Below, piece by piece: positions 36,727 through 51,451 of a stretch of DNA of 64,000 nucleotides. The stretch lies in IMG/VR virus record IMGVR_UViG_3300020171_000001, positions 93,288-157,287 of that record, one strand, 5' to 3'. A model generated the notes under the pieces. That model had not been told where the DNA came from. It searched no databases and saw nothing but the letters and a program-made list of their open reading frames with translations. The position numbers and the translations under genes were made by a program. Source of the DNA: a virus. Positions within the stretch are counted from its first letter, which is position 1. Every line of letters starts with the position of its first letter.

Positions 36727-36788
36727 CGCGCAGATATTTCGGCAGGCCGTGCAAGGCCTAATTTTGCTTTTCTGTGAGGAGCCGCGCC

Positions 36789-37922
36789 ATGGAGATACAC
36801 GGTCTGACTTACCATTCCACACCAGAGATCATCAGCCTCGGCGACCCGCCCGAAGGCCGGTGGATTCTCAAGCCCCTAATTCCTGCGGTGGGAAAGACCA
36901 TCGTATTCGGCGCGCCGAACGACTACAAGACATTTACGATGCTGGATCTCTGCTTGGCCTATGGAAGCAATGGCTCGCTCTTCCAAGAACTTCCGTTGCA
37001 AAAACACGGGCGTGGGCTGTTCATCACGGTCGAGGGCGACGCCTATGACACACGGGATCGGCTCTCCATGCTCTTGCGCGGGCAAGCCAATCTGGACCCG
37101 GGGAAGATCGACCTGTTCTTCGGGCACGAGCCGATCTACCTCAACACGCCGCGTGGGATCCAGATCTTGGGCGAGGTGATCGGCGACATCAAGCCAGGGC
37201 TCGTGGTCCTTGATCCTTTGCGGCACTTCATCCCTGGCTGCGACGAGAACGATGCCACCCGCGTGAGCGCCGTCTGCGAGGGCCTCAACACGCTCCTGCG
37301 CACCCACCGGTTCTCTCTGGTGGTGATCCACCACGCGGGAAAGCGCGGGGATATGCGCGGGTCGTCGGCCTGGGATGGCTGGGCCGACAGCGAAATCCAG
37401 TTCATCGCGGCTCGCAATCAGATCTTGGAGGGGATGGGGGGCCCCTGCGACGTGATCACGATGCGCCAGCGCAAGGTCCGGAACGCGGGGTACTCCGATG
37501 ACTTCTTGCTCGTGCCCTTGATCGATGACAAGACCATGACGGCCTTCTACTCCATCATGGAGGGTCCCATACAGGGGGACACCCCGGTGGCTATCGATGG
37601 TGCTCAACGCATCCTCCACTGGTGGAACATCGAGGGATCCATCGGTGATTGCGCAGGTGGATTCGCCGTAGACAGCGCCCGGCGCGGAGCCAATATCTCG
37701 CCAGAGAAGGCCAAGGCCGGATTGCTGTTCCTGGAGCGCCGTGGGCGCGCCAAGCAGATCAAGATTCTTCGCAGACGCGGGGCCGACGGCTTCGGTAGTT
37801 TTCCCGGGTGGGTTATCGAGGCCTCGACAACAGATCATATCCGTGCGATGCTCTCCGTCATGAAACGGCATATGGCCGCCGACGAACCCCAGGTCGATTG
37901 GGCCGAGGAAGACACGGTGTAG
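36789..37922 (+). CDS. AAA_25 (RepA/SF4-like) helicase without primase domain
   Basis: WILKPLIP...FGAPNDYKT, EG, LVVLDPL, DEND, VIHHAGK...MRGSSA; GAGGAG RBS. Confidence 0.85.
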   Translation: MEIHGLTYHSTPEIISLGDPPEGRWILKPLIPAVGKTIVFGAPNDYKTFTMLDLCLAYGSNGSLFQELPLQKHGRGLFITVEGDAYDTRDRLSMLLRGQANLDPGKIDLFFGHEPIYLNTPRGIQILGEVIGDIKPGLVVLDPLRHFIPGCDENDATRVSAVCEGLNTLLRTHRFSLVVIHHAGKRGDMRGSSAWDGWADSEIQFIAARNQILEGMGGPCDVITMRQRKVRNAGYSDDFLLVPLIDDKTMTAFYSIMEGPIQGDTPVAIDGAQRILHWWNIEGSIGDCAGGFAVDSARRGANISPEKAKAGLLFLERRGRAKQIKILRRRGADGFGSFPGWVIEASTTDHIRAMLSVMKRHMAADEPQVDWAEEDTV

Positions 37923-37927
37923 CACAC

Positions 37928-38197
37928 GTGCTGACCCTGGAAAGCGAAGTTGAGAGCGTCCTGGCCATGCTGTCCACGGACTGGTCCCTGCGTCAACTGT
38001 ACGAGCGTCTCGTGGGCGCCCTGGAAGACCGCGGTATCGTGCCAGGCGCACCAGTGCCTACAGACCGTGACTGGCTTGCTCTCGAGCTTGATGCCGGGGA
38101 GGGGCACATGCGGCCCCTGGCAACGCTCCTGTTCCGCGTGAGGGACTCGCAGCAAAGTTGCCCGCAGTGGGTCCGGCAGATCAAGTCGCGGTTCTAA
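37928..38197 (+). CDS. small hypothetical protein
   Basis: Follows AAA_25; VLTLESEVE... Confidence 0.45.
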   Translation: MLTLESEVESVLAMLSTDWSLRQLYERLVGALEDRGIVPGAPVPTDRDWLALELDAGEGHMRPLATLLFRVRDSQQSCPQWVRQIKSRF

Positions 38198-38342
38198 AGC
38201 CCAGTTCAATAAAAGGCCTGGCGCGGGGGAGAGGGACCCGGCCAGGCTTCCTACAATACCGCGGAGAGGGAGACAGGTACCCCGGAGTCTAGCAAAGGCT
38301 CCTGCGCCATGCAAGAGCTATTGCTTCCAGCTCTGAGCCCGC

Positions 38343-38377
38343 GCAGCCCGCAGCCCGCAGCCCGCAGCCCGCAGCCC
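38343..38377. repeat. (GCAGCCC)5 tandem repeat
   Basis: Read directly; intergenic. Confidence 0.95.
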
Positions 38378-38571
38378 GCGCCAACGAAGGCCCACCCAAA
38401 CCCTCCCCTACGAGACTTACATATGTGAGACACTTTAGCTGGTCTGCGGTAGTGAGACTCGCAACCTGTGGGGCTACCGAGTGGCAGTTTGCGAACTCTT
38501 TCGCGTCTGCAAGCGTGCTCCTGCGGGGTTCGGCAGAGCCCCGATTTTGGCCGGTGGGGGGGCCCTCGCTC

Positions 38572-38650
38572 TATACGGAAACAGCAAAAGTGAACAAATC
38601 TCGACTTATCCACAGGTATTTCTGAATGATTCCGAGACGTTCGAGATTTT
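38572..38650 (+). repeat. left copy of 79-bp inverted repeat, DnaA box TTATCCACA at 38606-38614
   Basis: 77/79 identical to the reverse complement of 45649-45727. Confidence 0.95.
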
Positions 38651-38685
38651 CGTGCGGATCTGTCACACTGTCCCGTGACCACGAA

Positions 38686-41600
38686 TTAGTCCTGTGATTC
38701 CGGATAGCTTGAGATTTTTGCCAGAAGTCGCCAGAAGGGCGAGTCGCGGCAGGACTCGAGCCGTTTGGCCCGCGTCACGATTAGCCGATCTTTCGCCCGG
38801 CTGACTGCCACGTAAAGGATGCGCAGCTCCTCCTCGGCCAGAACCGGGTCTTGTCTCACGCGGCCGCTCGGGAAGACCCCGTACGAGACATTGGCCAGGA
38901 CCACGACAGGGGCTTCCAGGCCCTTCATGCCGTGGCACGTTGCCAGCGTCAGCCGCTCGGTGTCCCCCGCGGCCATGGCCGCTGCGTCGCGCTGCTTCTG
39001 GATGTTGTGCAGGCCCCGAAGGTACTCCACGTGCGTCAGGAGCTCCGTGGCCGTCTCGAAACCCGCGGCGTACTCCAGCAGCTCCTCCAGGACGATGGAC
39101 GCCCCCTCGTCCTCCGAGGCGCTCGACAGGCCCATCTCCTCGGCCATGTGGTCTTCGTACTCGATGACGTCCACGAGCCAGCGCAGGGCCTCGGCCGGCG
39201 CGCGGCCAGCTCGATCCTGTAGTTTGTCCAGGATGTCCCGGAACCGCACGATGCTGCGCCGCTGCGGGTACGCCAGGCTTCCGTGCTCCAGTAAGTCAGA
39301 GAGCAGGTCTCCTGTAGCTCGGCCGGCGGCCTGGGCCTCCGCGACGCCCCGGAAGGCCTTGGCACCGATGTACCGGAAGGGCACGTTGACGATGGCCCGG
39401 AGGCTCGAGCCGTCCGGATCAGCGCCCGTGGCCACTCGCAGGTAGTTGAGCAGGTCTCGGGCCTCCCTGGTGTCAAACAGGAAGCCTCCAGCCAACTTGC
39501 GAAACGGGATGCCCTGCTTTGTGCAGAGGATGGATAGCCAATGCAAGATCCCCGCTGTCCGGGACAGCACCGCGGTGCGCCCGAGGCCTTCCTCCCGTGC
39601 CACCGCGAGGCAGAACTCCAGTTCTTCGCGTCGTCCTGGAAAGCTCCGCATCTCGATTGGCGCTCCAGGCACTCCGCGGATTGGCCGAATGGCACCGGTG
39701 AGATTCCACGGGCGACCCTCAATGACGCGCGAAGCCGTCTCGCAGATGCGGTCCGTCGACCGGTAGTTGTTGGGCAGCGTGTAGACTACTGGCTTGTACT
39801 CGTGCATGAACTGGAGGATCTGCGCGGGGTCTGCCGTGCGCCAGCTGTACAGTGAGTTGTGGACGCAGATCCCGTTGGCATAGTAGCTCGTGGTCTTCGC
39901 CACCTGCAGATCTGCCAGGACCTTCAGGGCGTCGTAGCGCTCCAGGCGGACCACCTCGCGGGTGCAACCCTCCTGCGTCCAGACCTGGCAACCCGGGACG
40001 AGCGAGCCCAGAGGGATTGCCACGATCTTCTCCTTGTTAGGCCCCTGAGCCGCGCTGAGAGCCACTCGAACCGTGCAGTCGATCTCCTCGCAGCGCAGCT
40101 TCACGGCCCTTGAGATGCGAAGGGCCAGATCATGGGCCTCGGCCCCGGAAGACACCTTGACTCGAATAACCCCGGTTCCCCTGCGGCCCTCTCTGGGTGT
40201 GATGCCGAAGTCGCGGAGCAGGGCCTCCCGAACGGCAGGCTGCTGCAAGATCTGGGACTCGCAGACCACCTCCGAGGCATCGTGCTTGTCTCCTCTCGAG
40301 AGGATGACGGAGAGCACAAGGCGATTCGTGACGTAGGTCTGCGGCATGAACGTCGGCCAGTCGAACAGGAGACGGAACGCGGTCAAAACCCTGCGACCGT
40401 TGTCACCGAACTCAGCAAACATCCTGGAGATCTCCTCTTCTCGGACTCGAAGTCCCCGGCCGTAGCGATTGAAGGGCATCGTGGGTACTTGGTAGAGCAA
40501 GGAGAGCCTTGATTCTTCGTAGCCGGCGCTTGCAGACGTCTCGTGGGCGTTAAGGAGCCAGAGCCTGTCCGCGTTTTCGTTCAGAGCGCGAGCGGCTACC
40601 GAGTGCCGCGTCTTGTTCTTTGCCCCCTGGGTTACTCCCAAGCGGAATCCCATGCCCTTGCGATACATCAGGTAGGTATAGAAGCGATCGTTGCTGGCAG
40701 GCATGCACGCGAACACGAGGTGGTCGTTGGAGCCGTCGAGGGCTCGACCGTCTTCCAGGGTGATCCGCGCGTGGTGCATCTTGGTCTGCTGCCCCACATG
40801 CTCTACTACCTGAGGGACGGGCCAGCCCTTGGCGCAGGAGAGAACCTGCATGCCTTGTCGCACCGACCCGAGCACTATGGTTGCATCCTCCGGTCCAGGC
40901 AAAGAGACTTCGGTGCTGTCTGGGTCCAGGCACTGTGCCAGGTCGCTGCACAGCATCAGGTTGTGATCGCGGTCGGTCCCCGGTGCTCCGGAGATAGCAT
41001 CTGGTAGGCCCACGGCCAGCCTCGCGATGGAATGCTGGATGCTGGACGAGTCCTGAGCTTCGTCCACGATGACCACGGACCATTGGGATGCCCACCAGCC
41101 CTGAAGTTCCTGGCTACCCGCCAAGGATTGCCAGAGCCAGCCCTGCGCATCGTCATAGCCGTAGAGACCCAGCTCCCATCTGCGTTCCTCGACTTCGCGG
41201 AAGAACGTGAAGGCGTCTTCCGCCGACATCCCAATGCGTTGGCTAAGCCAGGCTTCTGCAACGTCCATCACGTTCTGTCTTGAGGCTGCCTCGGAGACCT
41301 GAAACGGGTTGCCATGTACATGGAACGGCCCCAGGTTCTTGCACCTGGAGATGAACGTCTCAAGAACCCGGACATCGAGGGCATCCGAGACCTGGATGGC
41401 GCCCTGCCGCCGAAGACGCTTGGCCACGATCTTCATGTGGTAGGGCAACGCACCGCGCTCATCGAAGGCAACTTGCCGCATGCCCTCGGGCCAGATCTTC
41501 TTGATCCGGTGGAAGCACAATGAATGGAAGGTTCGAACCTCCACGCCGGGAACCCCAGCAGACTCCAGTCGGTGCAGGACTTCGCCGCAGGCCGCCCGGG

Positions 41601-41802
41601 TGAAGGTGAGCACCAGAATGTGCTCGGGGCGTACACCGGCGCGCACCAGACGGATGACCCGTGACACCACCGAGCGCGACTTCCCCGAGCCCGGAGCACC
41701 TGCCACGAGCGACGGTCCTAGCCCATGGTCGCGCACAGCCGTCTGGTGCTCGTCGAGCTGGAAAGCAGACGCAGGTTGCGGTTGTAAATTCAGGCTTGAC
41801 AT
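38686..41802 (-). CDS. UvrD/PcrA-like SF1 helicase, intein-containing
   Basis: GAPGSGKS, LTFT, TFHS, VDEAQD, DLAQ|SLYSWR, NYRS, TCHGMKGLE, EELRILYVAVSRAK; AGGAGG RBS. Confidence 0.93.
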   Translation of the reverse strand: MSSLNLQPQPASAFQLDEHQTAVRDHGLGPSLVAGAPGSGKSRSVVSRVIRLVRAGVRPEHILVLTFTRAACGEVLHRLESAGVPGVEVRTFHSLCFHRIKKIWPEGMRQVAFDERGALPYHMKIVAKRLRRQGAIQVSDALDVRVLETFISRCKNLGPFHVHGNPFQVSEAASRQNVMDVAEAWLSQRIGMSAEDAFTFFREVEERRWELGLYGYDDAQGWLWQSLAGSQELQGWWASQWSVVIVDEAQDSSSIQHSIARLAVGLPDAISGAPGTDRDHNLMLCSDLAQCLDPDSTEVSLPGPEDATIVLGSVRQGMQVLSCAKGWPVPQVVEHVGQQTKMHHARITLEDGRALDGSNDHLVFACMPASNDRFYTYLMYRKGMGFRLGVTQGAKNKTRHSVAARALNENADRLWLLNAHETSASAGYEESRLSLLYQVPTMPFNRYGRGLRVREEEISRMFAEFGDNGRRVLTAFRLLFDWPTFMPQTYVTNRLVLSVILSRGDKHDASEVVCESQILQQPAVREALLRDFGITPREGRRGTGVIRVKVSSGAEAHDLALRISRAVKLRCEEIDCTVRVALSAAQGPNKEKIVAIPLGSLVPGCQVWTQEGCTREVVRLERYDALKVLADLQVAKTTSYYANGICVHNSLYSWRTADPAQILQFMHEYKPVVYTLPNNYRSTDRICETASRVIEGRPWNLTGAIRPIRGVPGAPIEMRSFPGRREELEFCLAVAREEGLGRTAVLSRTAGILHWLSILCTKQGIPFRKLAGGFLFDTREARDLLNYLRVATGADPDGSSLRAIVNVPFRYIGAKAFRGVAEAQAAGRATGDLLSDLLEHGSLAYPQRRSIVRFRDILDKLQDRAGRAPAEALRWLVDVIEYEDHMAEEMGLSSASEDEGASIVLEELLEYAAGFETATELLTHVEYLRGLHNIQKQRDAAAMAAGDTERLTLATCHGMKGLEAPVVVLANVSYGVFPSGRVRQDPVLAEEELRILYVAVSRAKDRLIVTRAKRLESCRDSPFWRLLAKISSYPESQD
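39856..40932 (-). mobile_element. intein (359 aa) in UvrD motif III with GIY-YIG-like internal domain
   Basis: Starts CLDPDS, block B SNDHLVF, ends DLQV..TTSYYANGICVHN/S; internal YTYLMY...FRLGVT...R...E. Confidence 0.9.
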
Positions 41803-41899
41803 GGTCCTCCTTGCTAGCATACAATGTCGGATAAGGGGAGATCTGTCTAAAGCGTGGTTGCATGCCTTGCAGGTTAGAGGCTGTCTGCAAAGGCCCGGA

Positions 41900-44218
41900 T
41901 CATGACGGTTCGCTTGCCGCAGTTTCCCCCGTGCCCCCGATCTCAAAGAGATGCTTCAGCATAGCATCCACGATGGACTTCTGGGACACGGCGGCCCATT
42001 TCGGGTTGGGCCCCTCGTAGGCGACAATGGGCGACTTGGGCCGTCCGCTCTCCGTGTCCCCGCCCAGCAGGACATAGAGTAGGCCTGCCTCGCCGTCCGT
42101 GTTCGGTTTCTCTTTCGACCCGATAGCTTCGTGCACCAGCAAGGCCTTCAAGATGCCCGTAGCTGCACGCCGGGCAATGGCCTCGTCCACGCCCTGACCT
42201 GCGTCGCCCCGGAAGAGTTGTTCCACGAAGTCCTCCTCGGGCTCGTTGAACCAGTCGGGGAAGCGCACGCCGCGTTCCTCGGCTATGCCCGGATTGCTCA
42301 TGGTCTGAAACAGCTCACGGAACGACTGAAGCAGAATGCGCCCCAGGGTCTCAGCCCCCTGAGCTTTCAGGGCAGCCGTCGACGCAGCAGCCGGAGCAGG
42401 GGCAAGAGCATCTCCATGTGTGCTTGCCGGCCCGCTCTGGCCCGACAAGGCTGTTGATGCCTTGGTCACCTTCTCGAGGTACGGCGCGCCCTTCTGGAGA
42501 ACTCGCACTTGCCGGTGTTCCTGTTCTTCGTACCGGTCTTCCACGCCGCGCACCGAGTCAAAGTGCCGGGAGCACAGGTCGAAGTAGTCACAGCGGCCCC
42601 AACGCCCCACGCAGTTGGGCGTGCACCGGGGCCACGCGAGGTCAACAGGGGGCAAGTCCTTGCCGCGTTCCCAGGCAACAAGGCCGCGGAGGAGGTCAGT
42701 TGCAGCGGGGACCAGCATGTACTCCCAGGTGTTCCGCACATCGCGAAGGTCTATCGGTGATTCAACACGGACAATGCCCCTGTCTGGGTCCACAGCTTTG
42801 ACGCCGCCGACGTGCACATCGGGCTTCACGCCGATGGTCACCATGGTGGAGGCAAGCTCAGGCTTCGGCTCGCCAGCGATACCGCTCATGCCACCGCCCA
42901 TGACGTAGAGACCGGCGTAGCCCATGAGCTGAAAATCCAGGCCGAAGCCCTCGGTCAGCTCTCGAGTCAGCATGGAAGCCGTCTTCTCGTCGTGGACGAT
43001 CGCTTTGCCCTCGGAGGTCCGGCGCACATCGTCGAGTCGGCCACAGAGCCGTATGCGGAACGAGCCGGTCTTGCCCGGGATCTTGACCGGCGCGGACACA
43101 GCCTCCATCCGGATTTCCGAGGTGATCACGTTGCTCGACGGGCCGTAGTCGAGGTAGCCATACCGCTTGAGTCTGGCACGCAGGACGGCGCGAGCCACAG
43201 ACATCTCCTCGCCGAGTACGCCTGCGCCGGCGTGCTCTTCAACGAATGCCAGCGGGTCATCCGCACGGTCGAGTCCGTAGGTCTTCGCGAAGTGGAGTGC
43301 CGCGTGGTACAGCGTTCCAATCTGGAAGTGCGGGCGAGGAAACCGAGACCGGATGCCTCTGACGTGCGCCAGGTACACACGCCGGCGGCACTGGAGCCAG
43401 TCGATGAGGATGTGCACGTTCACACCCCATGACAGAGATGAGCCCCCCTGCATTCCGGGCATCGTGGACAGGATCTCGGAGACATCCGGCTTCTTCAGCA
43501 CGATGGGCTCAGCACCTCCCGTGATGGACATCAGGAGGTCTTCGAACGTCCCCTTGCTTGCCGTCTGACCGAGTTGCTGTTGGCCAGTGCCAGAAGCCGC
43601 CGTAGGTGCGGCCGCGGCGACGGTGGCAGCGGCCGCCAGTTCTGCGGCGGCTTCGCTGCGCGCCAGGTCCTGCCGGCTCTGCGGCGCCACACCGAGGTCA
43701 CTGGCCATGACCCATTCCGGTGCCTGGGCCCACGGGAGCTGCGTGTAGTAGGCTACCTGCCCGTCAGGGTAGACGTGCTGGCGCTGCACCGTGATGGGCG
43801 GCAGCGCCAGGTCCTCTGGCTGATACCACGTGCTGTTGGCCAGAAGCACAACGGACCCATCCTCGTACATGTGCGTGTGTGTCACATCTGCCGGAGTCCC
43901 GGTGCCGGTTACGGCCGGGCCACGGTACGCCATACGCGCGGCCACGGGCATGGCAGAGAACGGAATGGTCACCAAGAGCACCTCCGAAGCAGCCTCTGGG
44001 CCGCCCACGGCCAATGCTTGACCGTGCATCCGGTGGTATCCTGAGCAGCTTTGCTCCTCGTTGAAGTACTTGTGGCAGTAGCGCTGCACGGTATCGATGC
44101 TCATGCCAATGAGACCCCCTCCGCATGGCAGGAGTTCGATGGTGATACCCGCGACGGGGTTCACACGCACGATCTTGTTGCAGGGGGGCAAATGCGCTCC
44201 CACGTCTTGCTGACTCAT
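41900..44218 (-). CDS. Cas4-like PD-(D/E)XK nuclease with long extensions
   Basis: CRRRVYL, GTLYH, E..., GRLDDV, DEKT, QLMGY, C-terminal C...CDYFDLC Fe-S ligands. Confidence 0.85.
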   Translation of the reverse strand: MSQQDVGAHLPPCNKIVRVNPVAGITIELLPCGGGLIGMSIDTVQRYCHKYFNEEQSCSGYHRMHGQALAVGGPEAASEVLLVTIPFSAMPVAARMAYRGPAVTGTGTPADVTHTHMYEDGSVVLLANSTWYQPEDLALPPITVQRQHVYPDGQVAYYTQLPWAQAPEWVMASDLGVAPQSRQDLARSEAAAELAAAATVAAAAPTAASGTGQQQLGQTASKGTFEDLLMSITGGAEPIVLKKPDVSEILSTMPGMQGGSSLSWGVNVHILIDWLQCRRRVYLAHVRGIRSRFPRPHFQIGTLYHAALHFAKTYGLDRADDPLAFVEEHAGAGVLGEEMSVARAVLRARLKRYGYLDYGPSSNVITSEIRMEAVSAPVKIPGKTGSFRIRLCGRLDDVRRTSEGKAIVHDEKTASMLTRELTEGFGLDFQLMGYAGLYVMGGGMSGIAGEPKPELASTMVTIGVKPDVHVGGVKAVDPDRGIVRVESPIDLRDVRNTWEYMLVPAATDLLRGLVAWERGKDLPPVDLAWPRCTPNCVGRWGRCDYFDLCSRHFDSVRGVEDRYEEQEHRQVRVLQKGAPYLEKVTKASTALSGQSGPASTHGDALAPAPAAASTAALKAQGAETLGRILLQSFRELFQTMSNPGIAEERGVRFPDWFNEPEEDFVEQLFRGDAGQGVDEAIARRAATGILKALLVHEAIGSKEKPNTDGEAGLLYVLLGGDTESGRPKSPIVAYEGPNPKWAAVSQKSIVDAMLKHLFEIGGTGETAASEPS

Positions 44219-44628
44219 GGCTCCCGACTCCTGTCTTTTGAGCCCTGGGGGCTCCCAGTGAGCGCCTTCGCGCGGTAGTTATCTCGGGCCCGGCGCTGCG
44301 CTTTGGCCCGGTACACCGGATCAGTGTTGTACCGATTGCGCTGGGCATCGGTGATGCTTGGCTTGTTGGCCTTGCGGTACCCCCGGGCTCGTTGGGCGTC
44401 GGCGCTCCGCGAGCATTCTTTGCACCGCGGGCGAAAACCATCCTTGGCAGCAGCCATGCGATGGTAGAACTCGTGCGTGCGGGGCTTGTCCTCGCCGCAA
44501 CTCAAACAAGTCTTGCGGGCGACAAGCGCCCCCGAGTCGCTGGGAATCACGGAGGTATTGGCACCGCCCGCGCGTTCTTCGTCCGTGCGCTCGGCATGAC
44601 CGGGGCTCTCTGCTCTCTTATTCTTCAT
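44215..44628 (-). CDS. zinc-finger protein resembling the N-terminal domain of HNH/EndoVII homing endonucleases, no nuclease domain
   Basis: KTCLSCGEDKP..EFY...DG....CKEC followed by a basic helix. Confidence 0.7.
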   Translation of the reverse strand: MKNKRAESPGHAERTDEERAGGANTSVIPSDSGALVARKTCLSCGEDKPRTHEFYHRMAAAKDGFRPRCKECSRSADAQRARGYRKANKPSITDAQRNRYNTDPVYRAKAQRRARDNYRAKALTGSPQGSKDRSREP

Positions 44629-44645
44629 CGTTTGTTTGTCCTTGG

Positions 44646-44697
44646 ATAGTGGCGGAGACCTCGGTGCTCTGTCAACCCTAAAATGACAGGCATGACA
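44646..44697 (-). promoter_or_regulatory. promoter TTGACA-N18-CACTAT with adjacent TGACAGGCATGACA motif (44684-44697)
   Basis: Intergenic, upstream of the zinc-finger/nuclease/UvrD genes. Confidence 0.55.
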
Positions 44698-44700
44698 GGT

Positions 44701-45522
44701 TCACTGGGCCATCCACCACTGCGTCATCCACCGGGTTCCAAACCAGAGCGCGAGCCCAGCCACAGTGAGGGACAGCAAGAGCCAGATGCACCCGGTGTAT
44801 CGGGGTAGGCCCACCGGCAGCTCCTCTGCCTGCGTCTGCCCATGGTCTGGGGCAGGTACACCCCGTGGGCCCCGTGGGCCCCTTGGGCCCCGCGGCGGGT
44901 CGTAGCCGGCTGTTGCAAGCGCGGCCAGCTGCCGAGCACGGTGCGGGCCTGGCGGGACCAGGATCTCGAAACGGGATTTGCCAGCGGGCCTCCGGGCCCC
45001 GCGGCCGCCAGACTGGGCCACGGTGACCGGCGCACCCACTGTCGGGTCGAGGATGACCCAGGAGACAGCCGGGATGTCGACTCCTGTGTTCCAGATGCGT
45101 GTGGCGACCACAGCATGCACTGAGCCCGGTTGACTGGCGATGCGTGCGGCCAAGTCTGCTCGTTCGGCCACCGTAGTGGTTTGCCCGCTAACAGCGACAA
45201 TACGCTCGACTCCAGGCAGTACGGGCAGCAGCGTCTTGGGGCCCGAGTCTGCGTTACCCGAGGTCGGGGCTGAGGACAGAGACTGTTCCGGTGCCAGTGC
45301 CCAGTCCGGCCGGAGTATCGCGACCCGGGCGCGGAGCGCCGTCGTGAGTTTGTGCATCGCAGCAATCGACGGGACTAGGACGAGCCCCGGGCCGCGGCGA
45401 ATGTCCAGGATCCGGGCCAGGGCTTTGTCTACGATCCAGGCTTCGGTGGGGTCCAGTTCCATGCCAGATTCCTGCCCATCGAATACCGCGCCTGTCCAGT
45501 CCACCTGCAGCGCATGAGACAT
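44701..45522 (-). CDS. SF2 helicase C-terminal (RecA2) domain with C-terminal transmembrane-like helix
   Basis: GLVLVPSI (IV), VATRIWNTGVDIP (V), QSGGRGAR (VI); ends CIWLLLSLTVAGLALWFG. Confidence 0.85.
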   Translation of the reverse strand: MSHALQVDWTGAVFDGQESGMELDPTEAWIVDKALARILDIRRGPGLVLVPSIAAMHKLTTALRARVAILRPDWALAPEQSLSSAPTSGNADSGPKTLLPVLPGVERIVAVSGQTTTVAERADLAARIASQPGSVHAVVATRIWNTGVDIPAVSWVILDPTVGAPVTVAQSGGRGARRPAGKSRFEILVPPGPHRARQLAALATAGYDPPRGPRGPRGPRGVPAPDHGQTQAEELPVGLPRYTGCIWLLLSLTVAGLALWFGTRWMTQWWMAQ

Positions 45523-45648
45523 ATGGCGTGCCCCCTTGTAGCTCACGGGTTGATCCATGGGGTTTGCGCGATCAGCAAAAATCTCAATCGATGTGCAATA
45601 TCGTTGAGGAATTCGCGGCAGATCGGCCTATATTTCGTGTTTTCGACA

Positions 45649-45727
45649 AAAATCTCGAACGTCTCAAAATCATTCAGAAATACCTGTGGATAAGTCGAGA
45701 TTTGTTCACTTTTGCTGTTTCCGTATA
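45649..45727 (-). repeat. right copy of 79-bp inverted repeat, DnaA box at 45685-45693
   Basis: Reverse complement of 38572-38650 with 2 mismatches. Confidence 0.95.
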
Positions 45728-45958
45728 AGGCCGGGGCATCTTTTTGGCCATCATCGGGGCCTCTTTGCAAGGGATTGAAGGCCTGAGTAGGGCCCTGTCT
45801 CACGCCATGCGTGAGACACATGAGACATACCCCAGCGTGGTCTGGCGAACTGCAGAAGTTCTCGGTTCTGGCTGCGCTACACCGGCCGATTGGCGCATGC
45901 ACGGAGCACAGCAAATGCCCACGCGCGTCTGCTTCCACGCGCTTGTGCATGTGCACAC

Positions 45959-47059
45959 TCACGCCCCTGTCTCAGCAAAGCCCGAGCCTGAGTCCCGCTC
46001 CACGTCCACGATGCAACCGCCAGACAGGAATCCGGCATCGACCAGCGCCGGCATGGATGCCTGCGCCGGCGTACGAAGTACAGGCCCGGTCAGCGCCACC
46101 ACAGACATGTTTCGCCCGTCCTGCCGACCGGCTGGAGTTGCCGACAGCCCGATGACCATCTGAGCGCGTTGGATGCCCCGCGTGACCCATGCCATGCGCT
46201 GTTCCCCGCCGAGAGTGTGGCACTCGTCAATGAGGACTCCCGTCCAGCCCCCCGGGGGCTCGTCGCCAATCCCCCCGTAGGATACGCAATGCAGCCAGTC
46301 CCAGCCACAGCCACAGTCGCCGATGCCTGTGCCGGCTTCTGCATCAGCTCCGGTGCCCGCCGCCAACTGCAACCGCGGAAGTGCCCTGTGGAGCACCCGG
46401 GCAGTCTGCCGAGCCAGCTCAGCGTTCGGCGCAATGTAAAGCCAGCGCCCGCCCAGAACTCGACGGCCTACCGCCAGAATCGCGGCAGCAACCCACGTCT
46501 TGCCGGCACCGCAGCTGGCAGACAGGATCCCGCGCCCGAAGGGCGCCGAGAAGGCTGACCAGGCCAGATCTGCCTGGTAGGGACGCAATGGAGCATCGGG
46601 GACCGACGCCAGCCTCAAAAGCGCCTGGCGCAGTTCCCACGCGCGTTCTCGGGTCAAGCAACTGGCAACCTGGGGCCCGCCGGCAACACGCAGTACAGGG
46701 CAAATGCGGTCTGTTGATGCCCATGTGAACGCCGAGGACGGAGACACAGCATGGGCCATCCAGGCGACCAAGCCCATGGGCATCGTCTGGTCTGCCGAGC
46801 CCAACCCGGCAGTCCACAGCATGCCCTCCAGGGACTCTTGACATGCCCAGCGCAAGGCTCGCAAGGCCCCGGGTCGCGAAGCAGCACGACCGCGGCTATC
46901 GCGTGCGAGGCGAGACAACCCGCCAGGTGTACGGACTTCTGCATCGCACGCCAGGCGCAGCCAGGTCTCGTAAAACGATTGAGAATCAGGCCCCTCGCAG
47001 ACCCGTGCTCGGGCGTCTCCAAGGCGCATGATTTCCAAACTCACGTAGCGGGTAGACAT
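45959..47059 (-). CDS. SF2 helicase N-terminal (RecA1, DExH) domain, UvsW/XPB-like
   Basis: LRPYQ, SCGAGKT, LYIAPN..LARQ, DECH, GLSATP.R.DG, LVDAGFLS then stop. Confidence 0.85.
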   Translation of the reverse strand: MSTRYVSLEIMRLGDARARVCEGPDSQSFYETWLRLACDAEVRTPGGLSRLARDSRGRAASRPGALRALRWACQESLEGMLWTAGLGSADQTMPMGLVAWMAHAVSPSSAFTWASTDRICPVLRVAGGPQVASCLTRERAWELRQALLRLASVPDAPLRPYQADLAWSAFSAPFGRGILSASCGAGKTWVAAAILAVGRRVLGGRWLYIAPNAELARQTARVLHRALPRLQLAAGTGADAEAGTGIGDCGCGWDWLHCVSYGGIGDEPPGGWTGVLIDECHTLGGEQRMAWVTRGIQRAQMVIGLSATPAGRQDGRNMSVVALTGPVLRTPAQASMPALVDAGFLSGGCIVDVERDSGSGFAETGA

Positions 47060-47082: not shown

Positions 47083-47111
47083 TTTACATGACACGTTATC
47101 CATGGTAGTGT
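47083..47111 (+). promoter_or_regulatory. promoter TTTACA-N17-TAGTGT (extended -10) for the terminase locus
   Basis: Divergent gap, 32 nt before ATG 47144. Confidence 0.55.
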
Positions 47112-47143
47112 GTGACCCAGACATCGAAAGCTGACCCTGCGCA

Positions 47144-49009
47144 ATGCCAAAGCTCGAAGAAGGCGTAATTCCGACGAACCAGGAAACCCTCGAGGCTCCT
47201 GACCCCCCAGGGTCCTTGCCGCAGGACCCGACGCTGGCTCCAACGGAGCCAGAAGACGACGGCGAGCCAGCCGAGTCGCTGGATACCGCGGATACCGAGG
47301 CGGGTGCGAGCGCAGTCATTGATCCCCCTGTGTCTCTTGGATTCCGGGATGGCAAGGGCCAGCGATGGGTCCACCGCACTGACATGCAGATGTGGTGGGC
47401 TCGCCGCGAGTCTGAGGGGAACCTCATCAAGACCCTGGACGCAGAGGGCCAGCGCATTCAGCGCACCGCGCCTGTGCGCCTCGACCTCATGGGCCAGCTC
47501 CGAGCAGGGCTCATGGACATCGACTACTCGACGTGCATGGAAACGGATATCTCGCGCAAGCCCAGGCACATGGAGCCCCCGCCGGGCAGAATTGATCCGG
47601 TCCAGGTTCCCGAACTCCGGGGCTCGTGGGCTGCAGCGTGGTCGAGCTATCCGTCCATCAACGGGGTGATCAAGACCACCCAGAAGAAGACAGTGCAGCG
47701 GGTCTACCCTGTGGAGTGGGTTGTTACCTGCGCCGCGCTGCTCGTCCTCATCGAAAAGTTCGAGGGGACGTCCTCCTACGGCCCGGACTACCTGTCGCTT
47801 CCGCCCGTGCGAGGCATCAATCGGTGGTGCACCCTGAACTTTTTTCCGGTGTGGAAGCCGGGCGAATGGACCCCACGGCTGATCATCCATGAAGGCCTGT
47901 TCCACCGCGGGCTCCCGCCGGCTCCGCCGTTCGTCGATGCCCTGCGGGCCATCGGCGTCCTCGACCCGCGCTTGCTCACCCGCGACATGCGATTGACCAT
48001 GGAGGCAGGCAGGGCCTTCGCCATGGAGATGCTTTGGGGCAACGCCCGCAAGGAGGCTATCTTGCCCTTCTTCCTGGAAGACGGGGACCTGGAGCCCAGC
48101 GCTGATCCAGTCCAGGACGCCGTGGGGCAAGTCCAGCGGCAGGTTGCCCAGCGACATCCGCAGGAGAACACCCAGCGACCGAAAACAGCCACCGAGGCCC
48201 GCGCCCGTGCAGAAGCGCAAGCCGCTGCCGAGATCCTCCGAGAGGTCCCAGACACGCCCGCGGGCCCCGCGGCCCCGCTCATCCGTGCCAATGACGGGGG
48301 CAGCGTGGCGAATCTCACCGGGCTCAATCCTCGGCAAGCCGAGGTGGCTCGGAGGTCTGGGGCCATGCCGCCCCTCCCGAAAGAGCATTTCGTCCACCGA
48401 ATCACCACGGGAGACGTGGACCGTTCTGTCCGCGAGGTGGACGCGGCGCACGTCGGTCTGGAGAGCGCCATCCGGATGAGCGATATCATCCTGGGGGCTG
48501 TGGGCCAGACCCTCACGCGCGTCATGGAAGACCCAGAGGCTCTCGCCATCCCTGACGTGATTGACGCCAAGTACCTGAGCAGTCTGACCATGGCCCTCCA
48601 GCGCGCCACGCGTACTCTGGAATCGGCCGTGGCGCTCTCCCGCAAGACCGGCGGCGAGCCAGACCAGACGGTCCTCCACACGCTGCTGCGTGTCGCCAAC
48701 GAGATGACTCCGGCAGAGCGCCAGAGCTACCGGAAGACCGGTGTCCTCCCTGGTCGTCTGCTCACCGGTGGGAGCATCACCAGCGGAGGCGATGCGATAC
48801 GCCTTGAGCCGGCCGAAGCAGAGGTCATCGACGTCGACGTCAAGCCAACGACGGAGAATCCGCTCGAGGCCAGAGCCAGAGCCGGAGCCAAGGTCGGTGG
48901 GCCCATGGCCCCCGCGATGGCGTCCACCAGCACCGGCTCTCCGGGCATACAAGAAGCCGCGGGGACTGTACTGGATAGACTGCGCCGAAAGCCACCCGGA
49001 GTCGGCTAG
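47144..49009 (+). CDS. large hypothetical protein, putative terminase small subunit
   Basis: 621 aa directly before TerL; C-terminal amphipathic helices ending GGEPDQTV resemble TerS oligomerisation regions. Confidence 0.5.
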   Translation: MPKLEEGVIPTNQETLEAPDPPGSLPQDPTLAPTEPEDDGEPAESLDTADTEAGASAVIDPPVSLGFRDGKGQRWVHRTDMQMWWARRESEGNLIKTLDAEGQRIQRTAPVRLDLMGQLRAGLMDIDYSTCMETDISRKPRHMEPPPGRIDPVQVPELRGSWAAAWSSYPSINGVIKTTQKKTVQRVYPVEWVVTCAALLVLIEKFEGTSSYGPDYLSLPPVRGINRWCTLNFFPVWKPGEWTPRLIIHEGLFHRGLPPAPPFVDALRAIGVLDPRLLTRDMRLTMEAGRAFAMEMLWGNARKEAILPFFLEDGDLEPSADPVQDAVGQVQRQVAQRHPQENTQRPKTATEARARAEAQAAAEILREVPDTPAGPAAPLIRANDGGSVANLTGLNPRQAEVARRSGAMPPLPKEHFVHRITTGDVDRSVREVDAAHVGLESAIRMSDIILGAVGQTLTRVMEDPEALAIPDVIDAKYLSSLTMALQRATRTLESAVALSRKTGGEPDQTVLHTLLRVANEMTPAERQSYRKTGVLPGRLLTGGSITSGGDAIRLEPAEAEVIDVDVKPTTENPLEARARAGAKVGGPMAPAMASTSTGSPGIQEAAGTVLDRLRRKPPGVG

Positions 49010-49048
49010 CAAATCAGCCAGCGAAGACAAAGACAGAAGAGAGCCCGC

Positions 49049-51451
49049 ATGCCCGAGTCCGACAGTAAGCCGCCGCGGCAGCAAGCCACGTTCTGGCGCC
49101 GAGAGATGCAGTACCGGAAGGGCCAGGCCGATGCAGCGACCCGGCAAATCCTGGCGCCGCCCGCCGAGCACCGGCTGCTCATGCCCCTCGATGTGATCCC
49201 CAAAGGCGCCACGGCCCCGTCGGCCGATCAGGACTACCTGAAAGACGTTCTGGCTGCGGCTCTGGACATGGAACGGCGTATCGAGGCCGCGCGTCTGTCT
49301 CCACTGGCTCTGATGCAGCTCTGCTTCCGTGCGCCCAACGGCAGTCCGCTCTTCGAAGCTCCGTTCTACAGGGAGTGGGATGAAGCAATTCTCGGCAATC
49401 CCAAGGTGCTCATCGAGGCCGCAAGGGGGACAGGAAAATCGATGTTCATCCTGGCCGCCATCCTCTGGGCCATAGGGAGCGACGTCAACATCCGCATCAA
49501 GCTCGTCGGGGAGAACGACAAGGTTGCGAACAAGCGGCTCTCGGTGCTCCACACCATCCTGGACAACAAGGAGCACATCTATCACAAGATCTTCCCGAAT
49601 GCGAAGAAGACCTCCAGGGGCTCCAAGCGCAAGAACAACGCCAGCCAGATCAACATCGAGAGAGACCTGGATTCGCCGGACCCCACGGTCGAAGCCGTCG
49701 GCGTGACATCCGCGGGCACAGGGAGCCGCGCTGATATTCTTGTCGGTGACGACCTCGTCGGCGCTGCCAACGCCCTGGTCCAACCGGCGAAGCGCACCAT
49801 GATCTTGGAGAAGATCCAAAACGACTGGCTCCCCTCTGTGGTCCCGGAGGGGCTTTGCTGGTTCATCTTTACCGTGTGGACCGAAAACGATGCGTCGAGC
49901 TGGCTCATCGCCAACACGGGCTGGCCCCACATCAAGCACGCGCACGGCACACCGCAGGACCCGTATCACTCGGCCTTTCCGGAGCTCTGGTCGTCGGCTG
50001 TTCTGCGGCGGAAACGGCGGGAGATCGGCGAGGTGGCCTACGCCCGAGCATACCTGTTGCGCCCGCACACCAAGGAGACCGTGGTCGTGCTCCCAGAGCA
50101 CATTCGGACGTGGGACCGCCGGCGTCTTCCACCGGAGAAGATCATCCGGGCGCACATCATCGTGGTAGCCGACCCGGCCTCGGGCAAGGAACTCAAGAAG
50201 GGGTCTCTCGACCCCTCGGGGCTGGCCGTCCTCGCCTACGTCCCCAAGCTCTTGCCAGAAGACACGCAGCAGACACAGCGGTCCCCGGCCGACGGCGGGG
50301 CGCATCTGGGAAGCGCCAACCCGCAAGACCTGCAGGACCTCGATGACGCGAGCATCACTGACCTGGAAGCCGACCCCGATCAGGCCCTCGATGGTCTGCC
50401 ACTCGATGCCCGCGGCGCCAGCAGCGCAGGCACACCTGATTCCCCGGCCATGTTCAATGCCCTCGCTGACCTCGACATCGCCAACATCTATTGGACTGGG
50501 CGCGGCGTCCCCTTCGAGATCTTTGTCATCGAGGCCCTGGAACATTACCTCCCAATGGGGCAGGAACAGGCCGACTTCCTGTGGTGGGTCGCTACGCAGT
50601 TCAATGCCCACTCCATCCTGTGCGAAGCGCAAGGGCTGGCCGACCTCCACCGCTGGATGGAGAACGAGCGGCTGAACTACGCCGGGAAGGTCCTGGGCCG
50701 GGCACCGACCTCGCACGATGAAATCGCACGGTTGTTCGGCCACCGCGGACTCGGGGCCCAGATCCAACCCTTTGGGACCGGCAACATGTCCAAGGGCGAA
50801 CGCCTCATGTCCATCACGCCCTTCCTCAATCTCCCGGCCAATGAGCCGCCAGCCGTGTTCTTCCGGCCGAACACCGTTGAGACGTTCCCCGAGCCCAAGC
50901 TCCTCGTGCATCCGCGCCTCGGCTCCGTCGAGGTTTCGAGGACACTCCGTGAACAGTTCCTGAGCTTTCCAGCCCGCCATGATGACATCCTCGACTGTGT
51001 CACCGCCGGCGTCCTCTGGATCGTGGAGAACCTGGCTCCACGCGACGCCCATGGTGTCTTCCAAGTCGATTCCGAGGCCTCGCGTGGGCTTCAGCACACG
51101 TCCTTCTTCGTGGCGGGCCCCTCGGAGAACCAGGGCTGGGGCCAGAGCCATGGCCAGAACCGCTCACGTCGCGGGGCCCCACTCGACATCGACCCGCAGG
51201 CCCACAACCGTCCGGACCTGGACCACGTCGTCAGCATCAACGCCACCCTCGCCCCAGCCAGCGCTCCAGCCAGCGCTCCAGCATCGGCTGTTCCAACTCT
51301 CCCGTCCCAGGCACCATTCAGTTCAAGCCCGGACTCGTGTCAGCCGGACACCCAGACTTCCAGGGACGGCCGAGGACGCATCATCGGGCACCCCGACGAC
51401 CCGGAGCCCGGCTGGCAAAGCGTCCGCACGTCCAACCGAGATCCTTGGTAG
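49049..51451 (+). CDS. terL: terminase large subunit
   Basis: IEAARGTGKS Walker A, AVGV...TGSRADILVGDDL Walker B, TVW coupling motif, nuclease VVADPA, E, FPARHDDILDC. Confidence 0.92.
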   Translation: MPESDSKPPRQQATFWRREMQYRKGQADAATRQILAPPAEHRLLMPLDVIPKGATAPSADQDYLKDVLAAALDMERRIEAARLSPLALMQLCFRAPNGSPLFEAPFYREWDEAILGNPKVLIEAARGTGKSMFILAAILWAIGSDVNIRIKLVGENDKVANKRLSVLHTILDNKEHIYHKIFPNAKKTSRGSKRKNNASQINIERDLDSPDPTVEAVGVTSAGTGSRADILVGDDLVGAANALVQPAKRTMILEKIQNDWLPSVVPEGLCWFIFTVWTENDASSWLIANTGWPHIKHAHGTPQDPYHSAFPELWSSAVLRRKRREIGEVAYARAYLLRPHTKETVVVLPEHIRTWDRRRLPPEKIIRAHIIVVADPASGKELKKGSLDPSGLAVLAYVPKLLPEDTQQTQRSPADGGAHLGSANPQDLQDLDDASITDLEADPDQALDGLPLDARGASSAGTPDSPAMFNALADLDIANIYWTGRGVPFEIFVIEALEHYLPMGQEQADFLWWVATQFNAHSILCEAQGLADLHRWMENERLNYAGKVLGRAPTSHDEIARLFGHRGLGAQIQPFGTGNMSKGERLMSITPFLNLPANEPPAVFFRPNTVETFPEPKLLVHPRLGSVEVSRTLREQFLSFPARHDDILDCVTAGVLWIVENLAPRDAHGVFQVDSEASRGLQHTSFFVAGPSENQGWGQSHGQNRSRRGAPLDIDPQAHNRPDLDHVVSINATLAPASAPASAPASAVPTLPSQAPFSSSPDSCQPDTQTSRDGRGRIIGHPDDPEPGWQSVRTSNRDPW

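Follow-up and report, generated by a model that had tools for sequence, protein, structure and literature searches.

Why does a phage carry a non-coding, AT-rich element between the two halves of a helicase gene, and an inverted copy of that element beyond the far end of the same operon? The question is raised by a 64-kb stretch of DNA (hereafter the window, 64,000 nucleotides, on which positions are counted unless stated otherwise) that forms the last part of a 157,287-bp groundwater virus record (IMG/VR IMGVR_UViG_3300020171_000001, positions 93,288 to 157,287). The two elements, here called L and R, bracket a 7-kb helicase-nuclease block, with R in the gap that separates the N-terminal half (N-half) from the C-terminal half (C-half) of a superfamily 2 (SF2) helicase and L just past the stop codon of a UvrD-like helicase gene. 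An earlier note on this DNA, made from its letters alone, had proposed either twin oppositely oriented origins using host DnaA plus a phage initiator or the recombination sites of an invertible segment. Each element consists of a conserved core with flanking blocks, one DnaA box, and three copies of a short motif, X:

38562-38653, no strand: L, highly conserved core, inverted copy of R (inverted repeat with R, 92 nt, 92%)
45646-45737, no strand: R, highly conserved core (1 of only 2 genome copies)
38538-38725, own orientation on the plus strand: full homologous span of L, with outer block, core, and inner blocks (alignment; shared 8-mers nearly on one diagonal)
45575-45760, own orientation on the minus strand, the sense strand of the operon: full homologous span of R (alignment; shared 8-mers)
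38606-38614, plus: DnaA box of L, TTATCCACA, conserved as TT[AG]TCCACAGG (motif search; conserved in relatives)
45685-45693, minus: DnaA box of R (motif search; conserved in relatives)
38596-38604, minus: X site 1 of L, inverted, -10 from the box (TYGAGATTT match; same position in relatives)
38641-38649, plus: X site 2 of L, preceded by a conserved AATGATT block (TYGAGATTT match)
38709-38717, plus: X site 3 of L, +104 from the box, within the last UvrD codons (TYGAGATTT match)
45695-45703, plus: X site 1 of R (TYGAGATTT match)
45650-45658, minus: X site 2 of R (TYGAGATTT match)
45579-45587, minus: X site 3 of R, +107 from the box (TYGAGATTT match)

Within the cores, positions 38572-38650 and 45649-45727 are identical at 77 of 79 nucleotides, the sole differences being CC versus TT at 38632-38633, and the longest exact stretch common to L and R is 60 nt. 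The arms AAATCTCGA and TCGAGATTT surround TTATCCACA in both copies, and the likeness continues into an outer flanking block (GCCCCGAT at 38538 and 45760) and two inner ones (CCRCGAATT at 38679 and 45610; TTGAGATTTTTGC at 38709 and 45575), the spacing of which matches to within 1-3 nt, for a total of ~185 bp of homology. A resemblance of this extent is far beyond chance. In a genome with a GC content of 0.63, L and R (0.34 and 0.42) are among the four lowest-GC 100-bp windows. The earlier note had described an inverted AT-rich pair, a DnaA box enclosed by inverted arms, and flanking blocks at matching distances, and the alignment and the base composition bore out each part of that description. 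L and R are the only copies returned by a BLAST of the whole genome; TTATCCACA occurs twice genome-wide, once per element, and all six genomic occurrences of TYGAGATTT fall within L and R. A Logan contig from the source run stops inside both repeats, which means that a k=31 assembly graph cannot cross them and does not by that fact reveal an artefact.

The phage group to which this genome belongs is without a cultured member and almost without database relatives. Close relatives were absent from blastn and tblastn searches of phage sequences with the L region, the C-half, and the large terminase subunit (TerL), and from single-protein searches of IMG/VR with the C-half, UvrD, and TerL, while an exact 21-mer search of viral and metagenome contigs found no relatives and a word-index protein search with the C-half, nuclease, and N-half returned self-matches only. 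Related phages were recovered through an exhaustive search with TerL as the marker, followed by contig look-ups and a scan with an alignment of the nuclease; their proteins are 25-54% identical to those of this phage.

Among these relatives, the inverted pair is found in three further lineages (relA and relB, on contigs of 110-114 kb, and L038) and at the same two places, the gap splitting the SF2 helicase gene and the position just past the UvrD stop codon. In relA (L006/L007) the gene order is as here, with one copy in a 330-bp gap between the helicase halves and the other directly after UvrD (150 nt, 75%, 7410 nt apart). The layout is likewise as here in relB (L032; 65 nt, 80%, 8819 nt apart), while in the L038 lineage the N-half is followed by a 260-bp gap, the C-half, the nuclease, a 699-aa UvrD, and the AAA_25 helicase, and the pair (44 nt, 77%, 4.7 kb apart) is without a DnaA box. 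The bracketed block has the same orientation in all four lineages, and copies within a genome are more alike than copies between genomes. A further contig (L005, TerL 53% identical) terminates exactly in TTTATCCACAGG, 190 bp downstream of its N-half gene, in what looks like a repeat-induced break similar to that of the Logan contig of this phage. An iteron, CCCAGTAAACG, is present in the helicase gap and, inverted, after UvrD in L009 and L039, though on separate contigs, so that the case is only suggestive. Eighteen more distant N-half homologues in IMG/VR are unsplit genes without boxes, which indicates that the split is derived and coincident with the element.

The comparison separates the element into an invariant and a variable part. 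TT[AG]TCCACAGG is unchanged in seven of seven copies from four phages, is the only invariant block in the alignment, and is the sole long exact match between genomes. Around it, all six complete box-bearing copies follow one fixed plan, with an inverted X at -10, AATGAT at +19, a second X at +35 to +45, and a third at +104 to +107. The X motif itself differs by lineage (TYGAGATTT here, TGTTAT[AG]TT in relA, and GTTA[CT]ATT in relB and L038, with the form TGnTAnnnT common to relA, relB, L038, and L012), yet each element has three sites, in mirror order within the pair, and these are almost confined to the two elements: six of six in this genome, six of six in 30 kb of relA, five of six in 22.6 kb of relB, and six of six in L038. 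A 25-33-nt almost pure AT tract lies between the X sites in L038 and L012. Within an element, X sites at different positions vary in concert, a pattern that is not accounted for by gene conversion between L and R but is by a lineage-specific binding protein. An invariant box with co-varying X sites would fit a conserved host factor, DnaA, paired with a fast-evolving phage factor.

Several further observations concern the elements of the relatives. A block of AATGAT-N5-GATAG followed by X is common across lineages. In two more distant relatives, the helicase gaps (L012:2993-3170 and L009:4716-4904) have no DnaA box, and each has direct repeats of 28-29 nt peculiar to it, set on both sides of a tract that is almost pure AT. 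In relB, the N-half match (L032:6166-8145) and the UvrD match (L032:13435-17307) are each interrupted by ~0.8-1.1 kb, which suggests inteins or other insertions.

What such an element might do is suggested by its parts. A DnaA box, phage iterons on either side of an AT-rich centre, and a neighbouring helicase whose tail is predicted to bind DNA make up a combination that matches iteron origins, and replication initiation or control is thus ranked first among the possible functions of L and R, a tentative preference that falls somewhat short of even confidence. Judged by motif, the features of an iteron origin appear to be present in the form of a consensus DnaA box, three X sites per element, and an AT-rich region. 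Each element would be a nucleoprotein assembly site with a fixed order of parts, namely an inverted X, 1 nt, a high-affinity DnaA box, an AT-rich stretch with AATGATT, an X at ~+40, and an X at +104 to +107, the last of these ten helical turns from the box. X would be the iteron of a phage-encoded protein and the box would be bound by host DnaA; together, a helicase-initiator and DnaA may open the AT-rich centre and load the helicase. The mirror-image pair could represent two oppositely oriented start sites, or one active origin and a pairing partner engaged by handcuffing or looping, as occurs with P1 incC/incA, F incB/incC, and P4 ori/crr. Both the identity of the bound proteins and replication as the output are what we infer from this combination of parts. 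The origins proposed in the earlier note are plausible on the strength of the invariant box, the lineage-varying X, and a neighbouring helicase with a putative winged helix, while the terminus-like polarity at R (see below) is not what that proposal would predict.

The best candidate for the reader of X is the AAA_25 helicase, which would bind through its C-terminal winged helix. Its gene adjoins L in every lineage for which that side is covered. A single-sequence AlphaFold model of the protein was unusable (predicted local distance difference test, pLDDT, 34), and in the ESM Atlas model taken in its place residues 266-378 match winged-helix DNA-binding folds with template-modelling (TM) scores of 0.54-0.64. 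Between lineages the ATPase part retains 50-65% identity and the C-terminus only 28-39%, and this divergence of the tail, in the three sequences available, may reflect co-evolution with X, with which it agrees without demonstrating it. Recognition of X by the winged helix is likewise a prediction. A search of the genome for a phage-encoded DnaA domain IV found none. The earlier note had suggested a search for a recombinase or initiator; on the initiator side there is this candidate beside L and, on the recombinase side, only a transposase of the IS607 type 95 kb away.

A comparable layout is described for phage-inducible chromosomal islands (PICIs) and the Staphylococcus aureus pathogenicity islands (SaPIs), where an initiator helicase gene is followed by a non-coding site with two lineage-specific iteron sets around an AT-rich centre (pri-rep-ori; PMC6092414). 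L resembles these sites in lying 3' of a helicase gene with a predicted winged-helix tail, a rep-then-ori layout. The differences are that the helicase here is of another family, that a DnaA box is present, that a small open reading frame (ORF) and a convergent junction lie between gene and site, and that the site has a mirror-image duplicate at a distance of 5-9 kb. Host DnaA boxes combined with sites for a replicon-specific protein are found in P1 oriR (incC/incA), F ori2 (incB/incC), pSC101, and P4 (ori/crr). In iteron plasmid and prophage systems, two site clusters some kilobases apart can bracket the replication genes, but these are direct-repeat arrays with known Rep genes and serve the control of low-copy plasmids, whereas the elements here are mirror-image composites in a lytic-looking phage of 157 kb.

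Several findings weigh against initiation or control. No origin-type switch in strand asymmetry coincides with the elements, and the polarity at R is terminus-like. There is one DnaA box per element, and a cluster of weaker boxes, sought nearby, was not found; the L038, L009, and L012 lineages are without any DnaA box. A sigma-70-type promoter points toward the C-half in the R copies of L012 (TTGTTA-N17-TATAAT) and L038 (TTGTAT-N17-TATCAT), where the X sites are placed like operators, and this layout of promoter and X suits gene control at least as well as replication. Finally, the co-variation of winged helix and X comes from three sequences and is confounded by phylogeny. The initiation and operator readings are not exclusive, since many phage origins are promoters.

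The asymmetry evidence bears on whether an origin lies at the pair. A two-breakpoint GC-skew model in which gene strand is allowed for has switches at genome positions 32-36 kb and 139 kb and an R-squared of 0.47, versus 0.19 for gene strand alone. The cumulative (G-C)-(A-T) curve has its genome-wide maximum at window position 45,792, and a change point was placed at 45,879 (support interval 45,644-46,016), both inside the R gap, with GC skews of +0.012 for the C-half and -0.099 for the N-half. The origin-type minimum is ~100 kb off; it falls at 36.5 kb of the genome and has a large, AT-rich divergent region nearby. R thus shows a terminus-like or end-like polarity and not that of an origin, which counts against a simple, classical bidirectional origin. 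Strong skew extends over an island of 8 kb (45.9-53.95 kb) that takes in the terminase genes on both strands.

That island holds the helicase N-half, a 621-aa gene, TerL, and five small genes, with C>G and A>T on the plus strand whatever the strand of the gene, and a similar island extends across the terminase region of relA. Outside the window, G000:C1:29346-29981 is the largest divergent intergenic region of the genome (GC 0.51) and includes its lowest-GC 100-bp window, along with repeated TTTGCAAA and TTCGCAAA words, A-tracts, and ~12 tandem CCGAGCA heptamers. It lies ~6.5 kb from the 36.5-kb minimum, near an AT-skew change point at 29.5 kb, and 2-6 kb from the 32-36 kb breakpoint, and this position near the asymmetry switches makes it a candidate for a main origin or an early control region.

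The polarity at R keeps alive, as minor readings, modules near a genome end (discussed below) and polar replication-fork barriers at a terminus. As barriers, the elements would work through a protein bound at X that stops the replicative helicase when it arrives from one side, and the inversion of the pair would confine fork fusion to this region. Inverted polar sites are the design of the Tus-Ter and RTP fork traps, the genome-wide asymmetry maximum and change point fall in the R gap, where the halves of one ancestral gene differ sharply in skew, and the asymmetry of relA fades gradually over the length of the bracketed block. The relA boundary, however, besides being more gradual, is ~1 kb inside the block and away from the gap; the skew in this genome is an 8-kb island, not a whole replichore, for which transcription or another cause is possible; DnaA is not known as a fork barrier; and the mirror symmetry of the pair leaves unexplained why the switch is at R only. 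Fork barriers are accordingly quite improbable.

The genes around and between the elements, mapped with a codon-usage model and domain searches (Pfam, PHROG), bear on the alternatives in which the pair acts on transcription:

36774-37922, plus: AAA_25 (RecA-type) helicase with a putative C-terminal winged-helix domain, candidate reader of X (Pfam AAA_25 1e-21; codon model)
37808-38197, plus: small conserved ORF (129 aa) between the AAA_25 helicase and L (tblastn to the 94-aa ORF of relatives, 37-39%)
38198-38685, no strand: convergent intergenic gap with L, TGAGACA/GAGAC motifs, and a (CAGCCCG)5 array at 38338-38381 (sequence, motif scans)
38686-41946, minus: UvrD-like helicase, last gene of the bracketed operon (Pfam UvrD-helicase, UvrD_C)
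41900-44218, minus: PD-(D/E)xK (Cas4/AddB-like) nuclease with an N-terminal zinc ribbon (PHROG exonuclease; homologues with PF12705)
44215-44628, minus: 137-aa zinc-finger protein with an endonuclease VII/HNH-like N-terminus (PHROG matches)
44701-45558, minus: C-terminal half of the split SF2 helicase (Helicase_C; phrog_16 positions 478-589)
45523-45958, minus: non-coding R gap between helicase N-half and C-half, 436 bp, with a TGAGACA cluster (motif scans)
45959-47059, minus: N-terminal half of the split SF2 helicase (ResIII, DEAD; phrog_16 positions 268-448)
49049-51451, plus: large terminase subunit, TerL (phrog_38 3e-43)

The N-half and C-half align to successive stretches of a single PHROG profile (268-448 and 478-589), which places R between the halves of one gene; the probable start of the C-half is 45522, where a start is called in the Logan gene table. 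The bracketed 7-kb block is a single minus-strand operon, with L in the convergent gap at its 3' end, and beyond the N-half a divergent junction leads into plus-strand genes for the 621-aa protein and TerL. The helicase-nuclease block of the earlier note therefore stands as one operon, while the long minus-strand ORFs flanking it do not stand as genes: by codon-position GC and homology, 36876-38051 (391 aa) and 47096-51151 (1351 aa) are shadow frames, and the true genes opposite them, on the plus strand, are the AAA_25 helicase, the 621-aa protein, and TerL. The zinc-finger protein is lineage-specific, with no homologue in the relatives. A near-consensus sigma-70 pattern (TTGACA-N18-TACAAT, 11/12) occurs at 41796-41825 on the plus strand, antisense near the 5' end of UvrD and adjoining the 3' side of the nuclease gene stop (41900).

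Both gaps are also rich in a wider motif. YGAGAY/TGAGACA sites peak in exactly these two gaps (7 and 8 sites per 400 bp, compared to a genome mean of 0.9), but outside the homologous 185 bp the arrangement differs between the gaps. The (G/A)TGAGACA family clusters in both gaps in non-homologous arrangements (38411-38460, 38852-38890, 45515-45521, 45796-45827, and 45968), with seven of the 18 genomic copies of TGAGACA among these positions; one family copy overlaps the probable C-half start codon, and a perfect 10-bp palindrome (TGTCTCACGC-ATG-GCGTGAGACA) is found at 45796-45818 in the R gap. Tandem arrays adjoin the elements in two genomes, as (CAGCCCG)5 at 38338-38381 in the L gap here and as GGCTAC hexamers in relA (L007:8277-8325), which follow the N-half stop codon directly. 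A Bacteroidota-type -7 motif, considered by eye for X, was dropped because genes here use Shine-Dalgarno sites.

The main rival is a pair of operators gating the operon. R would be the promoter-operator of the C-half/nuclease/UvrD operon and L an auxiliary operator cluster at its 3' end, with a phage repressor or activator at X and DnaA as a co-regulator in this subclade, in a complex that loops 5-9 kb or blocks read-through; the split would let the two helicase halves come under different control. The pair begins a short way upstream of the C-half start codon in four lineages, and its other end falls at the UvrD stop or shortly beyond it, so that exactly one transcription unit is bracketed. 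In the R copies of L012 and L038, near-consensus promoters of the sigma-70 type face in the sense direction, with one X site covering the -35 and another directly past the -10; the X form TGnTAnnnT recurs in relA, relB, L038, and L012, and the strand asymmetry does not resemble that of an origin. DnaA is well established as a regulator of transcription, and the DnaA-box modules of phage T5 likewise bracket one transcription unit, with promoter P4 on one side and terminators before the other module. There is also a parallel in lambda OL/OR, two inverted clusters of three sites each for one phage protein with long-range looping, to which the three X sites per inverted cluster, the bracketed gene block, and the near confinement of X to the clusters correspond, but lambda has divergent outward promoters, while the genes bracketed here all run in one direction and no repressor is known. 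Among the six box-bearing copies, no promoter of the sigma-70 type keeps its position, and none scores well in the sense direction in R of this genome; strict mirror orientation and an internal spacing of 104-107 nt are left unexplained by looping; and no repressor gene was identified. On balance an operator pair is possible though doubtful, and initiation or control of replication is still preferred.

The T5 modules (IRC-spacer-IRD and IRD'-spacer-IRC') are also the closest described analogue of the elements themselves. T5 carries a pair of non-coding modules of 131 bp, inverted and separated by 1.8-4.3 kb, which contain consensus DnaA boxes and are conserved across 25 relatives (bioRxiv 10.1101/866236); they lie in the terminal repeat and bracket a pre-early transcription unit, and a role in the stop of DNA injection is only hypothetical (bioRxiv 10.1101/866236; GenBank AY587007). 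In both phages, non-coding inverted modules of ~130-190 bp with internal inverted arms and a consensus DnaA box are set a few kilobases apart around one transcription unit, are conserved among relatives, and share a 14-mer, CCTGTGGATAAGTC, around the box. The T5 modules differ in having 2-4 boxes each, in their location among pre-early genes of a terminal repeat, in the absence of a split helicase or AAA_25 neighbour, and in that the T5 origins map elsewhere; there is no homology to the elements here beyond the box. The element family is a variant of iteron/DnaA sites and T5-type modules.

If the likeness to T5 extended to function, the pair might tether the DNA to (membrane-bound) DnaA or mark the genome end or first-entry region, and the bracketed nuclease-helicase genes would be early take-over functions. 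Along with the inverted, conserved modules and the common 14-mer, this would suit the position of R, 1.4 kb from the terminase module and at a terminus-like or end-like asymmetry switch. The record, however, has a 127-bp end overlap that looks like an assembly overlap and suggests a circular assembly; the function of the T5 modules is itself a mere hypothesis; lineages without a DnaA box retain the pair; and neither sequence nor gene homology to T5 is seen beyond the box. An entry or tethering function is improbable on this evidence.

The second proposal of the earlier note, an invertible segment, has the geometry in its favour. Recombination between L and R would flip the 7-kb block, as a switch or for amplification like that of the 2-micron plasmid; the repeats are inverted with a 60-nt exact stretch in this phage, and the greater likeness of copies within than between genomes suggests occasional gene conversion. 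Inverted repeats likewise border a several-kilobase segment in Mu G/Gin, P1 C/Cin, and Hin, but no invertase and no alternative gene ends are found here, the orientation is fixed in four lineages, and the cargo is one operon continuous with an upstream gene. A genome search with PF00239 gave a single match, 95 kb from the block, and one with PF00589 (tyrosine recombinase) gave no match; the PF00239 match, the only resolvase-domain protein, is an IS607-type TnpA (MerR helix-turn-helix plus resolvase domain) beside a TnpB, and was rejected as a serine invertase. The relA copies share at most 26 exact bases and those of L038 are 77% identical over 44 nt. A flip would sever the operon from the N-half gene and the promoter side, and the cargo is co-directional, with no exchange of alternative gene ends or promoters. 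The flip-flop proposal has accordingly been set aside as very unlikely. The IS607-type element to which TnpA belongs is at G000:C1:36119-38180 (L004:1297-3358), outside the window, and encodes TnpA (214 aa) and then TnpB (399 aa, with OrfB_IS605 and Cas12f-like TNB domains).

Least likely of the explanations weighed here is that the arms act in RNA, pairing as a processing stem around the operon mRNA, or that the elements are functionless copies of a mobile element. Both arms would be present as complementary RNA in a single transcript that began at the N-half and reached the 38.2-kb hairpin, and the two core differences in this phage would give G-U pairs. Across all lineages, however, changes that keep a 5'/3' panhandle through G-U pairs (22) are not in excess over A-C (21) or other mismatches (32), the elements fold no better than shuffled sequence (z +0.4 to -1.3), and Rfam gave no match at E up to 1. 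A mobile element would not account for the finding, in four lineages, of only two copies per genome and always in the same places, and there are neither target duplications nor, at the ends of the conserved span, terminal inverted repeats. A structured RNA, intron, or terminator was rejected on the same Rfam and folding results, with only a weak 5-bp hairpin flagged by the scan. A minus-strand hairpin followed by a T-run, seen by eye at ~38205-38250 in the L gap, was not flagged. The elements were also considered as protein-coding, as one frame is open through both cores, yet the conserved flanking blocks fall in different frames in the two copies, GC shows no codon-position pattern, and a Pfam search gave no match.

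A composite of several of these readings can be drawn, though it is rather unlikely in its entirety. The clade may have evolved a two-site, mirror-image nucleoprotein device, formed by host DnaA and a self-loading winged-helix helicase, that splits the SF2 helicase gene and brackets an AddAB-like helicase-nuclease operon at a switch in replication polarity; the two sites would act as paired unidirectional starts, or form a boundary that controls forks or entry in the manner of the T5 modules.

With its recurrence in relA, relB, and L038, what had appeared as an oddity of a single genome becomes a conserved, precisely built family of cis-elements in an uncultured phage group. The partnership predicted for it is that of host DnaA at an invariant box with the winged helix of a phage helicase at lineage-specific sites. 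The presence of the element in the split offers a reason for the long-lasting division of an SF2 helicase gene that is whole in 18 distant homologues. The family also gives a second case, independent of T5, in which inverted DnaA-box modules bracket a transcription unit in a large phage of virulent type, the role of the T5 modules having been open since 1987, and if the device proposed above is real it would be the first hint of a wider, functionally testable class that includes those of T5. Were the elements origins, they would aid the annotation of origins in uncultured phages; were they DnaA-dependent gates, the phage would couple its recombination and repair genes to the replication state of its host.

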